Part shown: in pieces, positions 3,001 to 9,000 of the stretch
How the letters are laid out: every line of letters starts with the position of its first letter
Position numbering within the stretch: the first letter of the stretch is position 1
Origin: a virus
Taxonomy: Duplodnaviria > Heunggongvirae > Uroviricota > Caudoviricetes
DNA: 64,000 nucleotides
IMG/VR virus record: IMGVR_UViG_2880378312_000006
Reading direction: 5' to 3' (one strand)
Position numbers: made by a program

Positions 3001-6000
3001 GCGCATCTCTGCCTGAATTTCGGGCCATTTGGCACCAGGCTTACATTTATGCTTAACCCACCCGATGGCATGCAGCTTAAGCTCCGGATACATAGCGTTA
3101 ACTTCTGGCATTTTCATCAACGCTTCAACGATATGGCCGTCGAATGTTGCCATGTCTTCCTGCAACAATTCCTGTGCGCTAATCACCATATCAACAGTGA
3201 TGTTTTCACATGTGTCGAACTTAACCATGACAGCGTTCTGTACTTCAGGGGCCAGGTTGTCAAAAGTGACGTTCATCGGATCGGATTCAGTCTCGACCGG
3301 GACAAAGGAAGCAGACGCCTCATCCCAGCGGTTTTCCTGCATATATTCAGCATCCCAGGAATCGAGGGCAGGGCGGGGTATACCGGGTTTATCCTCGCAA
3401 ACAAGAAATTTATAAGCGCAGTCCTGAGCAGCCGGATAATGTTCCAGGAATTGCCAGTGAAATTTTGCGCGGGCGCGACGTTCATCACCGGCTTCAATGG
3501 CAGTGGCTACAGCGACGGCACCTTCTTCCTTTATTGCCTGTTCGTCCGGAATGGCGGCGCAAATAAAGACTTTACTCATTTTGTTTTACCTCATTACAGA
3601 TTTAAGGGTGAACAAATCCCTGCCATTGCTGGCATATAAGAATGAAATCGGATGTTTATTACGGAACTGTTTTAAAGACCTGCCGGGATTTCGTTATTAT
3701 CCTGGTGAATAACTTTATCGACCGGGTAACAGTTACCGGGAATTTTCTGTTCGGTTGCTGCAGTCACACACTCCTGCATTGTCCTGTGAACACTGACTGC
3801 AATATCAACTGGCTCTCCGGAAACAAGAAAAACTGTCAGAACAAGTGCAAATGCTGTATTCATTGCCAGCATCCTTTTTGTATCGGACGTAAACGGGCCA
3901 ACATTGAAAGAATGCATATTTTATTTAATAGCTCCCGTTCGTGTTTTCTCTTGTTAATGGCATCTTCAGTAAATACAGGGTTACTGATAGTGACACCAAT
4001 TTCAAAACAACCTTCAGACGTATTAACGTTTGGTAATAACGTTTCCATTATCGCGTCCTCAACAATGAATTTTGTGATGCGGTGCCTGGTGCCTCCAGGT
4101 GACGTTAACCAGTTAACAATTAACGCCGGATACAGAGAATCCCCCCATAACACTGTTTTTGGTTTTAACTGTTCCGCGTGCGCTCAGCCGCATTCACCGC
4201 ATCACAAAATTCACTTTAAAAAGGGCGGCAGAGCAGTCACGGAGTAAAACTGATACCGCCAAACGTCACCAGAAAATTGATAACAGAGGGCGTTGCAGCG
4301 GGGTTGTCACTTAAGCGTATGGTCAACCTGACAACCCGGTGTCCTCAACGGGGGAAGGAATAACCCCTCCATACTTACCGCCGCGCCATTTCGCGGATTG
4401 CCACAACCGGAAGCGCACGGTCGACGAAAATTTAACGACAGGCTATCTATGAACCAGCTACCTCGCCGTGCGCTTTCGCGTTATGGTCTGACTTTTCAGG
4501 GAAATATCCTTTCAGTAAACTGTCAGTGCCGTATGCTCACCCGTGTCCGGCGCACGCACTCCACCTCACCCGTGGAGAACTCCTTAATTACCAACCTTAG
4601 CTTCGTTGGTTAGCTATTAACGCGGGTATGTAATCATTCTGGCAATGCTTAATGCCGCTGCTTTTTCCAGATTGGTGATATCCTGCTCCAGAGCGGACAG
4701 ATTTTCAGCCTGCTTAGCCCTGGCTTCATTGGCCCATTTCAGATCCTGCGCTGCATTAATTTTCTGGTGCATCCACTCATAAAGTTCATCATCGGTATAG
4801 TCTGGCGCGATGATGACGGGTTCTCGTTTCTGCATGTCGGCTCCTTGTGGTTAGCGTTGCCTGCTTTTAACCACGTCAGGCGAGGTGGTATCCTCTGAGG
4901 GGTCTGTTACTCGAGAGGAAATTGGTTATGAATACAATCAAGTTTTCTTGCCCAGAATGTGGTGGCGAAGTCTTTGACACATCCTTTAAGCCGCAGGGCT
5001 CTGACAGTTTCGCGGGAGCCATCTGCAAAAATTGTGGTCACCTTGTAACTGAAGATGAGTCCTCGCAGTTCGATGACGAAATCGTTGACAATATCTTCGG
5101 TGCACTCACCAGAGACTTTCTGAAGTAAAGGCGCATACCGCTTAGTTACCGCTCTGATAACTCTTACCTGTCCTGCAATGGCGCTGATGTCAATATAAAG
5201 CGCCATTGCTGCTTCTTTGCCGATCCCGGGATGCCTTCCATTCTGATGTTTGACTTCGCCCACTGAGAAACCCTCTGTTTCCCCTTAACGCCGGGGTAGC
5301 GGAACAAAAACCTGCTGCATAGTTATTAAAGTTGAACCCTGCCGTCATGTTCATACGCCTCGGGCTGGCTACTTAACCCCTGACCACTGCCGGGTAACTC
5401 GAAGTATTTCCCTGCGTTCTGTGGGGCGGGGTGGGTTGGTATTTTTAGTTTAATAAACATTAAACTTAAGTCAAGTAAAAACTAAACCGCGGGACATAAC
5501 AAACACAACGCTTTTGATAAAGTCGTTGCGGTTGTTATGTTTCTATTGGTAGTGAAAGTTAGGGAAACTGGCGTCTTGCGTGGATCACGTTTACTACTTC
5601 AACGCTTGATGTTGTTACGCGGTATAGAATTATATAGTTAGGGTGGGCTACAATCTCACGCAAGCCAGGTACTCTGTCGCTTGGTGGGTATAAATACGGA
5701 TGTTCGGATAACGGCAGCACACAACCCCTTAATCGCTGCCATAAGCGTTCAGCCGCATCTATGTCGAAACGAGCAATATAACTAGTTATATCATCTAGGT
5801 CGGTATCTGCGCTTTCAAGCCATAACACGGGTAACATTTTACTGCTTGCTCCGTTCCTTGCGCATCTTAGCAAAGCGTTCTGCCATTCTGCGCTCAACTT
5901 CGTCATGGGGAATTGCTGGGCGCGGATCTGCAAGGCTCGTTGCTACTTTCGCACGCAGCCATTCGTTGTAACTGTTTTCTTGTTCAATGGTTTCAAATTC

Positions 6001-9000
6001 AGAAACCATTGGTGAAAGGGCTCTATTCATGTTTCCTCCGGTTTTATAACTCAGGCGCGGCGGCATTTTTGCGCCGCAATCCATCTCGCTATGAGATCTT
6101 CCATTGATTCTTTTTTCTGCTTTAACTCGCTGATTATCTGGCGTTGCTCATCCTCAGGGAAGGCTGAAAAAATCTGCAATAATTCCAGTTGATTAGACGT
6201 TAACCCTGCATGTGGTGGAGAACCCCCCGGTTGTTCTGCGTATTCCGCATCCAGATACCCTTCCGGCATCCCGTATGTTTGCTCTATTCTTCTGGCAGCC
6301 TTTTCTCCAAACGAGGCTCTCCCACTCATTAGTTGAGATAGGTAGCTCTTCTCTTTGGGTGGCAGAGTTTTATCTTTAAACCACTCCTTGAGACGTAAAC
6401 GGCGAATTTCTTTTTTTTGCATGTGGTAATTATCTTTAGTAATCACTAAACAAGCAAATACTTGACTTAATGGTTTATTAAACACTAAACTCGCAAAAAA
6501 ACACTAAACCGAGGAAGGTATGACATTAAAAGAGTTTATTAAATCATTAAGGGTTGGTGATGCTAAGAAATTCGCGGCCAGACTTGGTGTATCGCCATCT
6601 TACTTATCGCAAATGGCGTCTGGACGAACAGCTATATCTCCAACCCGCGCCCTTATGATCGAATCTGCGACGGAAGGCCAAGTAAGTAGGGCGGAGCTAC
6701 GACCCCATGATTGGGAGCTTATTTGGCCTGAGTATGCGAGCGGCATTCGTTTGGGGCAAACACATGTAGTTCATGCTGAAGGTGATTGTAGTGCATGCTT
6801 ATCTGATGGAGTTGATTCATGAAAATCAAGCATGAACACATCCGCATGGCGATGAATGTCTGGGCGCATCCGGACGGCGAAAAAGTACCGGCTGCGAAAA
6901 TTACCAAAGCGTATTTCGAGCTGGGAATGACGTTCCCGGAACTGTATGACGACAGCCATCCGGAAGCCCTGGCCCGTAATACCCAGAAAATTTTCCGTTG
7001 GCTGGATAAAGACACCCCTGATGCTGTTGAAAAAATGCAGGCTCTGTTACCGGCGATCGAAAAGGCGATGCCGCCTTTGCTGGTGGCCCGTATGCGCAGC
7101 CACAGTTCTGAATATTACCGTGAGATCGTCGAACGGAGGGATCGGCTGGTGAAGGATGTCGATGATTTTGTTGCGTCAGCGGTTGTTTTGTATGACCAGA
7201 TGAATCGCGGCGGCCCGGCAGGGAATGCTGTGGTGATGCACTAAAAGCACGGTGTTCGGGGGTTTTATGAGCAGCAAGCTTCATGGTCTTGTCTGGGAAG
7301 GGTGCGCCTTCACCGGCATGATCTTATCCAGGGTGGCGGTTATGGCCCGTCTTGCAGACTACAGCAATGACGAGGGCGTGTCATGGCCTGCCATTGAAAC
7401 TATCCGGCGTCAGATCGGTGCAAGAAGTGAATCCACAGTGAAATCGGCTATTGCAGAACTGGCGAAAGAGGGCTGGCTGACGAAGGAAGAGCGTAAGGTC
7501 GGTGGGCGTAATGTAAGCAATATCTATCGGCTTAATGTGGAAAAACTCGAAGCAGCTGCTGCGGCGGCGCGTGAGTCATATAAACCGAAAAGAAAAATTA
7601 GCCCGGCAAAAAATGACCCGTTAACAGTTGACCCGTCAAATATTGCCCCCTCAACGGTTGACCCGTCAAATTTTGATGGATCAACTGTTGATAACAAACT
7701 GCCGATTAGGGGGGCGATGATTGACCCCAATCCGTCAGTATTAAAACCTGATCCGTCAGATAAAAGATCTTCTTGTCCGGACGCTTCGCAACCGGACCCG
7801 CAGACGGCTGAACAGAATTTTTTAACCCGACACCCTGACGCGGTTGTGTTCAGTGCGAAAAAACGCCAGTGGGGAAGTCAGGAAGATTTGGTGTGCGCAC
7901 AGTGGATCTGGGGACGAATCGTGAGTCTTTACGAGCAGGCGGCCAGCGATGATGGCGAGATCACGAGACCGAAAGAACCCAACTGGACTGCATGGGCCAA
8001 TGACGTGCGGACAATGCGGATGCTGGATGGCAGAACTCACAGACAAATTTGTGAAATGTTTGGGCGTCTCCAGCGGGATTCGTTCTGGGTAAAAAACATC
8101 ATGAGTCCGGCAAAACTCCGGGAAAAATGGGATGAACTGGTTATCCGCCTGGGGCGTTCGCCCGCGCAGCGTTGCGTGAATCACATTTCTGAACCGGACA
8201 CTGAAATACCGCCGGGATTCAGGGGGTGACGTGTCATGAAAAACATTGCGGCAGTTGGGGTTCTTGAACGTATTCGCAGACTTGCACCACAGGGGGCGGT
8301 TCCACCGTACCGGACGGTGGAGGAGTGGCGGGAATGGCAACTTGCTGAAGGACGAAAACGCAGCGAGGAGATTAACCGCCTGAATCATCAGGTGCGGGTT
8401 GAAAAAATCCTGAACCGTGCGGGCATCCAGCCGCTTCACAGGAAGTGCTCATTCGGGAACTACCGGGTGCAGAACGACGGTCAGCGCCATGCTCTGAGCC
8501 AGGCGAAATCCATTGCCGATGAATTGATGACCGGATGTACAAACTTCGTGTTCAGCGGTAAACCTGGTACCGGTAAAAATCACCTGGCAGCAGCGATTGG
8601 CAATCGGCTGATGGCGAAGGGGAGAAGCGTGATTATCGTCACCGTGTCCGATGTCATGAGCGTGTTGCATGACGGCTACGACAACGGCCAGTCCGGGGAA
8701 AAATTTTTACAGGAGCTTTGTGGAGTTGACCTTCTGGTCCTTGATGAAATTGGCATGCAGCGGGATACGCGCAACGAGCAGGTCACGCTGAACCAGATAG
8801 TCGACCGCAGAACGGCTTCGATGTGTAGTGTCGGAATGCTGACGAACCTGAATCACGCAGCGATGAGCACACTCCTCGGAGATCGGGTGATGGACCGTAT
8901 GACCATGAATGGTGGTCGTTGGGTGAATTTTAACTGGGAGAGCTGGCGGTCAAACGTTGGACGTCAGGGTATGTGAGAATTTTTGACGAGGTAAATTTTC

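Follow-up and report, generated by a model that had tools for sequence, protein, structure and literature searches.

Identification of a toxin–antitoxin pair in the rexAB position of a lambdoid immunity region as the paaA2–parE2 module of Escherichia coli O157:H7

The virus record IMGVR_UViG_2880378312_000006 (Caudoviricetes) provides a stretch of 64,000 nucleotides, referred to here as the window, in which two small genes occupy the position of the lambda rexAB genes, next to a repressor gene. We conclude with high confidence that the three genes are the paaR2–paaA2–parE2 operon of CP-933P, a cryptic lambdoid prophage of E. coli O157:H7 EDL933 (Sp12 in strain Sakai). The operon places a type II toxin–antitoxin (TA) pair inside an immunity switch; for its behavior in the chromosome we infer an addiction role, and for its end a hairpin terminator. 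The PaaA2–ParE2 module is already known: it has been named, genetically dissected and structurally solved since 2010. The same locus is described as the immunity region of CP-933P/Sp12 by Jurenas et al. 2021 (PMC8630535), with its operon structure, toxicity, labile antitoxin, addiction and bistable PaaR2/YdaS/YdaT switch. Earlier work on the system (Hallez et al. 2010; Sterckx et al. 2012–2016) is taken here from its presentation in PMC8630535, PMC4803016 and PMC10886550, and Prolic-Kalinsek et al. are also among the published accounts of the locus.

Comparison of the three proteins with the PDB sequences gives 100% identity over the native residues to the crystallised PaaR2, PaaA2 and ParE2, and all three matches are far beyond chance. 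The DNA leads to the same locus. Many E. coli O157:H7 chromosomes contain the 2-kb region 5300–7300 at 100% identity, and it lies there within a lambdoid prophage adjoining ynfA–speG; the first 15.3 kb of the window are 99.99% identical to this ynfA–speG prophage locus. On the identity of the module there is no evidence to the contrary; its biological role is less certain. The elements of the immunity region are the following.

5447..5486, minus strand: PL933P and the OL operators, just downstream of the TA pair (hexamers, palindromes, inverted repeats)
5494..5540, minus strand: hairpin between the parE2 stop and PL, candidate terminator of the paaR2–paaA2–parE2 operon
5559..5837, minus strand: parE2, 92-residue ParE/RelE-fold toxin, stop included (PDB identity, Pfam, PHROG 2455)
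5839..6030, minus strand: paaA2, 63-residue antitoxin, disordered when free and without a DNA-binding domain, stop included (PDB identity, Pfam, NCBIfam)
6051..6422, minus strand: paaR2, 123-residue helix-turn-helix (HTH) repressor, CI analogue with leaderless mRNA (PDB identity of residues 1–66)
6423..6519: divergent control region of 97 bp with the OR operators, PRM933P leftward and PR933P rightward (promoter and palindrome scans)
6520..6822, plus strand: ydaS, Cro analogue, divergent from PR933P (Pfam YdaS_toxin/HTH_3, weak P22_Cro match)
6819..7244, plus strand: ydaT, CII analogue (Pfam YdaT_toxin)

The toxin is assigned most directly. According to the table of open reading frames (ORFs) and the raw sequence, parE2 starts with ATG at 5837, ends with TAA at 5561–5559 and encodes MLPVLWLES...ARRQFP. 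All 92 of its 92 residues are those of the chains deposited as "Plasmid stabilization protein ParE" (PDB 5cw7_B, 5cze and 5czf_C; E=7e-60); since the sequence is that of crystallised chains, the RelE/ParE fold is established by identity and no fold prediction is needed. The Pfam family ParE_toxin (PF05016) matches over profile positions 1–89 of 89 at 60.9 bits, for a gathering cutoff of 23 (E=1.9e-16), and phmmer finds four other solved ParE toxins: 3kxe (3kxe_A, E=3.6e-5), 6x0a, 5ceg and 8c24. Both searches, Pfam and PDB, thus bear out the ParE/RelE-fold match that the initial annotation anticipated for 5559–5837. Classification as a RelE-type mRNA interferase was considered and set aside in favor of ParE, as NCBIfam RelE_StbE reaches 21.4 bits, below its cutoff of 27.9, whereas ParE_toxin is well above threshold. 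The PHROG families of toxin and antitoxin are both listed as "unknown function". ParE2 is reported to be toxic, SOS-inducing and nucleoid-associated (Hallez et al. 2010, via PMC8630535 and PMC4803016).

The antitoxin gene paaA2 runs from ATG at 6030, preceded at 4 nt by GGAGG, to TAA at 5841–5839 (ORF table and raw sequence; MNRALSPMV...KERSKQ), and a single base, 5838, separates its stop from the parE2 ATG on the same strand. A GGAG motif inside paaA2, 11 nt before the parE2 ATG, suggests that the two genes are translationally coupled. Adjacent, co-oriented antitoxin and toxin genes at 1-nt spacing form the arrangement of a type II TA system. PaaA2 is 100% identical to PDB 3zbe_A, 5cw7 and 5cze (E=5.5e-37), matches Pfam PaaA2 (PF21217) at 70.7 bits for a gathering cutoff of 27 (E=1e-19) and scores 84 bits with NCBIfam NF050103, which NCBIfam labels a RelB-family antitoxin. 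The possibility that it is a ParD protein of the ribbon-helix-helix type was rejected: PF21217 is its only Pfam match, with no ParD family even at E<=10, and at the same limit the PDB sequence search returned no ParD chain, just PaaA2 itself and chance matches. PaaA2 has no DNA-binding motif (PMC8630535), so that a separate regulator, PaaR2, is needed, hence the term "three-component system". It is unstable, with degradation dependent on ClpXP and ClpAP (Hallez et al. 2010, via PMC8630535 and PMC4803016). For this exact sequence, toxicity of the toxin alone and neutralisation by antitoxin binding are published (PMC8630535, PMC4803016), and the complexes have been solved (5cw7, 5cze). Public annotation of the locus is inconsistent: in RefSeq, paaA2 is either a "RelB family antitoxin" or a "hypothetical protein", paaR2 is a "hypothetical protein", and ydaT is labelled "toxin YdaT family protein", where experiments showed that YdaT is no toxin.

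The regulator gene lies directly upstream of paaA2–parE2 in the same orientation, which completes the three-component layout. Its ORF (MQKKEIRRL...) extends from ATG at 6422 to TGA at 6053–6051 and ends 20 nt before the paaA2 ATG. Residues 1–66 of PaaR2 are those of the "Phage repressor protein CI" entries 7nkv_A, 8c3k and 8c3l_A (E=5e-41), and its C-terminal part is DicA-like by NCBIfam. Protein sequencing has confirmed the N-terminus MQKKE, and transcription starts at the ATG, so the message is leaderless; paaR2, paaA2 and parE2 form one operon from this PRM-type promoter (PMC8630535). The initial annotation had given two co-oriented small genes of 63 and 92 residues with a one-nucleotide gap and a repressor at 6051–6422, and these coordinates, lengths and spacing are exact; its suggestion of co-transcription with the repressor agrees with the published single operon. 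The location that it proposed, the rexAB position of lambda between the repressor gene and PL, is likewise that stated in PMC9986795. Its label of a "ParD/ParE-like" pair holds for the toxin, a ParE by PF05016 and PDB identity; the antitoxin belongs to the PaaA2 family PF21217 and has no ParD match.

The promoters and operators reproduce the architecture of a lambdoid immunity region: the repressor gene and a cro-like gene diverge from shared repeated operators, and a second OL/PL set lies on the far side. The divergent region measures 97 bp, as in PMC8630535. A consensus scan finds a PR-like promoter, TTGACT-18-TAAACT, on the plus strand at 6462–6491 and a PL-like promoter with the same two hexamers, TTGACT-16-TAAACT, on the minus strand at 5474–5447. 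The OR palindromes are TTTAGTAATCACTAAA at 6435–6450 and TTTATTAAACACTAAA at 6474–6489, operator-like palindromes of OL are found at 5449–5464 and 5471–5486, and inverted repeats I1 and I3 connect OL with OR. The motif TTTAGTN4ACTAAA, allowing at most two mismatches, occurs eight times in the window for 1.5 expected, and four of the eight are the OR/OL sites, the only two places at which the palindromes cluster. An exact YdaT operator, TTGATTCATGAAAATCAA, is located at 6812–6829, at the ydaS/ydaT junction. Its pattern TTGATTN6AATCAA, the published YdaT OM site (PMC9986795), occurs once.

The experimental account of the switch, which includes footprints and reporter assays, fits onto this map. 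The PaaR2 and YdaS footprints overlap on operators in the 97-bp intergenic region, the PL-type promoter PL933P beyond the TA genes is repressed by both proteins, and YdaT activates a PRE-type promoter, PRE933P, as an alternative start of the paaR2–paaA2–parE2 transcript (PMC8630535). PaaA–ParE and PaaR act as independent repressors (PMC4803016). The locus has two stable, heritable states; stationary phase favors switching, and transcription of the TA operon goes on in either of them (PMC8630535). As a side observation, an IS1203-family element apparently lies inside the 2-kb immunity region in two strains (H1 and H2).

Between parE2 and PL, the hairpin at 5494–5540 has 22-nt arms with 82% complementarity around a 3-nt loop. 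Its RNA fold of -24.5 kcal/mol (z = -4.55) was equaled by 0 of 200 shuffles, and it is probably the operon terminator that precedes PL. The initial annotation put PL at about 5450–5530. A PL-like promoter is indeed present, with PL/OL at 5447–5486; the remainder of that range belongs to the hairpin, so promoter and hairpin had been merged. In the accessible portions of the papers on the locus we found no mention of the hairpin. The region 4800–7400 was also searched for a structured RNA or a type I/III antitoxin RNA, and this option was dropped, as Rfam gave just one sub-threshold chance match, to the hairpin. A weak sigma-70-like element, TTGATA-16-TATGTT (plus strand, 5514–5541), falls within the hairpin and points antisense into parE2, at a level that could arise by chance.

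A search of 5426 complete E. coli genomes found the 472-bp TA pair in 629, nearly always as a single chromosomal copy, and 582 copies are at least 99% identical; the carriers include non-O157 serotypes. Escherichia phage Evi is its sole carrier among 50,697 phage records. Phage Evi (LR597642.1, 6260–7123; locus L002) has the whole module, with an identical ParE2, one substitution in PaaA2 and two in PaaR2; it is 95.7% identical over the 2-kb immunity region, and its parE2 ORF is intact yet unannotated. In IMG/VR, paaA and a PaaR-type regulator stand upstream of the ParE homologue in 80 of 80 retrieved loci. The regulator is PaaR2 with at least 97% identity in 50 of them, and in 19 it combines a different N-terminal HTH with the conserved C-terminal ~50 residues. 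The other arrangement, seen in 11 (L132, L133, L143–L147 and L149–L152), consists of two tandem PaaR-type regulators before paaA, one PaaR2-like (71–74% identity) and the other, adjoining paaA, DicA/PaaR1-like. In L143 (1988–2840) the second regulator ORF continues into the start of paaA.

Alignment of PaaR2 with the regulators of L143, L140 and L157 reveals a common C-terminal stretch of ~50 residues (Q-ELLQ-F-AFP...KKE-M...RW-A) joined to unrelated N-terminal HTH domains, at 31–34% overall identity. A conserved C-terminus behind unrelated HTH domains suggests recombination breakpoints within the regulator gene; such exchanges would swap the immunity specificity and keep the C-terminal domain together with the TA cassette. 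At least three different N-terminal HTH types precede the cassette, whose retention is consistent with selection to keep it when immunity regions recombine. Outside the phage setting we surveyed 80 ParE2 homologues in contigs from one genome per species (GTDB representatives, L004–L083). These are 47–74% identical and come from alpha-, beta- and gamma-proteobacteria, for example Komagataeibacter, Acidithiobacillus, the Pseudomonas syringae group and Bartonella; in 76 of the 80 species a PaaA2 homologue is encoded directly upstream (median ORF ~64 residues). No PaaR2, YdaS or YdaT homologue was detected within 3 kb of these pairs, and no conserved third gene upstream of the non-E. coli pairs is apparent in the ORF tables, where spurious ORFs of high-GC genomes weaken the negative. 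The survey agrees with the suggestion of the locus authors, and fits a free-standing PaaA2–ParE2 cassette that would have been captured by a lambdoid immunity region.

Identity to the studied sequence, together with the published experiments, shows how the module works. PaaR2 is made from the leaderless PRM-type transcript, which runs on into paaA2 and parE2. PaaA2 wraps around ParE2 and neutralises it in a large hetero-oligomer; PaaA2 is degraded by ClpXP and ClpAP, and free ParE2 associates with the nucleoid and induces SOS. Competition of PaaR2 and YdaS for the shared OR/OL operators creates the heritable bistable switch, and YdaT turns on the PRE-type promoter that reads into the TA operon. 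In the account that we favor for the biological role, the TA pair would serve in the chromosome as an addiction module, so that a cell which loses or replaces the immunity region or the prophage would pay a penalty. On an unstable mini-F plasmid the locus is as good a stabiliser as ccdAB, through post-segregational killing, and its authors propose a corresponding role for it in keeping the prophage immunity region stable (PMC8630535); this addiction is the sole demonstrated phenotype of PaaA2–ParE2. Several observations make this role less certain. ParE2 activity, scored as SOS induction, was not detected under steady growth in either switch state (PMC8630535), so that addiction is shown on plasmids only. 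ParE2 is reported not to bind the GyrA59 fragment, which other ParE toxins bind, and not to inhibit gyrase (PMC10886550). The hairpin is followed by no clean T-run and belongs to no Rfam family, and for this reason the terminator role is one that we only infer.

An anti-phage module expressed in the lysogen, in the manner of RexAB, is an unlikely alternative, and is compatible with addiction. Under this scheme an infecting phage would shut off host transcription or translation, PaaA2 would be degraded by ClpXP/ClpAP, and the freed ParE2 would damage DNA or arrest the cell, thereby aborting the infection. The protease-labile antitoxin and transcription in both switch states suit such a mechanism, as does the rexAB slot with its repressor co-transcription; other TA systems are established defence elements, and the pair is carried by the E. 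coli genomes counted above and by an isolated phage, Evi. Yet transcriptional changes at the locus released no active toxin (PMC8630535), and toxin, antitoxin and regulator match none of the 5027 defence models of PADLOC-DB v2 at E<=0.01. No relation to RexA or RexB is seen among the Pfam matches of toxin or antitoxin, and we found no anti-phage test of PaaA2–ParE2 in the searchable literature. The neighboring tandem prophage has an empty rexAB slot, which implies that the slot need not carry a defence gene. The stronger proposition, that PaaA2–ParE2 would be a functional RexAB replacement for abortive infection or exclusion and that lambdoid prophages would generally take up such cargo in the cI-to-PL slot, draws its entire support from position and expression pattern, and we regard it as improbable. 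By analogy it is reasonable to read abortive infection or exclusion from the expression pattern, and the pair may act in this way, which would be unsurprising; the initial annotation had left defence open, so its hint counts as no error. A defence role, if true, would be of moderate interest, as the ideas of TA-mediated defence and of repressor-linked defence cargo are already established.

The remaining explanations fare worse. That bistability yields a subpopulation with active ParE2 and slowed growth, making the pair a modulator of stress or persistence, draws on the heritable states and on switching promoted by stationary phase (PMC8630535). The same source counts SOS-positive cells equally in both subpopulations and in construct-free cells (0.88%, 0.95% and 0.84%), and we consider this role very unlikely. 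A decayed, non-functional remnant might be expected of a cryptic prophage such as CP-933P, in which integrase, portal and J are frameshifted in a 99.99%-identical strain. We give this view practically no weight, as the published toxicity and plasmid-stabilisation assays already refute it: the three ORFs are unbroken and encode the exact proteins for which expression, toxicity or neutralisation, and crystal structures have been reported, and the sequence is conserved at 99% or more in 582 genomes. A captured addiction cassette is also the picture with which the heteroimmune regulators, the free-standing pairs and the empty neighboring slot fit, and they leave it unchanged. The positional insight of the rexAB slot is already in print (PMC9986795) and the locus is no new discovery; the value of the exercise is one of calibration, in that a reading of sequence alone was right on the TA pair, the fold family, the repressor, PL and the lambda analogy.

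A second lambdoid prophage follows in tandem from 57087 and occupies the window from there to 64000. The features identified in it are these.

57087–58217, minus strand: integrase
58195–58443, minus strand: excisionase
58508–60952, minus strand: CP-933P-like exonuclease
63288–63926, minus strand: LexA/S24-type CI repressor

In this prophage, ~210 nt separate the repressor stop from the first gene of the PL operon (62843–63076), and the slot filled by paaA2–parE2 in CP-933P is empty. The 77-residue product of 62843–63076 (minus strand) has 24 N-terminal residues, MTAGFNFNNYAAGFCSATPALRGN, in common with the 54-residue product of the first ORF downstream of PL933P (5190–5354, minus strand). The latter diverges after these 24 residues and stops early, and has the look of a remnant left by truncation or recombination. 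The match of the window to O157:H7 strain ECP19-2498 ends at 57043; beyond the prophage, that strain has what is left of ompW, then yciE and the trp operon. The right-hand junction of the window (57043/57087) is found in only 28 of 5426 genomes. In strain MB9-1 two parts of the window lie ~424 kb apart in opposite orientation (H17 and H32 in NZ_CP040107.1), an arrangement in agreement with the prophage-mediated inversions of the chromosome that have been described for Sp12 (PMC8630535).

Set against known systems, the window is the same as paaR2–paaA2–parE2 of CP-933P/Sp12 in proteins, DNA, chromosomal neighborhood, promoters, operators and YdaT site, with no difference at the locus; only the right flank of the prophage distinguishes the source strain from the O157:H7 strain compared. 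The paralogous paaR1–paaA1–parE1 of CP-933M shares the regulator–antitoxin–toxin order, the lambdoid immunity position and a YdaT-type CII analogue. Its type of regulator conserves the C-terminal ~50 residues of PaaR2 behind an unrelated N-terminal HTH (34% overall identity), and its ParE and PaaA are ~68% and ~73% identical to ParE2 and PaaA2 of the window; the surveyed loci L155–L163 are taken to be of this type from such identity levels. PaaA2–ParE2 and PaaA1/ParE1 do not cross-neutralise (PMC4803016), and tblastn found neither paaR1–paaA1–parE1 nor a second copy of the module in the window.

Canonical ParD–ParE systems (plasmid RK2, Caulobacter ParDE1 3kxe, V. cholerae ParDE2) share with PaaA2–ParE2 the toxin fold and family PF05016, the antitoxin–toxin order and plasmid stabilisation. 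Their antitoxin carries a ribbon-helix-helix domain, whereas PaaA2 has none and autoregulation is left to a separate repressor. ParESO/CopASO (Shewanella CP4So) and PfiT/PfiA (Pseudomonas Pf4), compared by description only, are also prophage-borne pairs with toxins of the ParE/RelE superfamily, for which a connection with prophage stability or production has been described (PMC13048266). The descriptions set them apart by their other phage types, their DNA-binding antitoxins and their location outside a CI/Cro-type switch. Lambda rexA–rexB occupies the same slot, with the repressor gene on one side and PL/OL on the other, shares a transcript with the repressor in the lysogen and likewise comprises two genes able to harm the host. 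The two systems have no relation in sequence or fold, and PaaA2–ParE2 is a soluble TA complex for which only addiction has been demonstrated. RexAB consists of a sensor and a membrane ion channel and aborts infection. As stated in PMC9986795, rexA and rexB are replaced by paaA2–parE2 at this locus, and CI by PaaR2.

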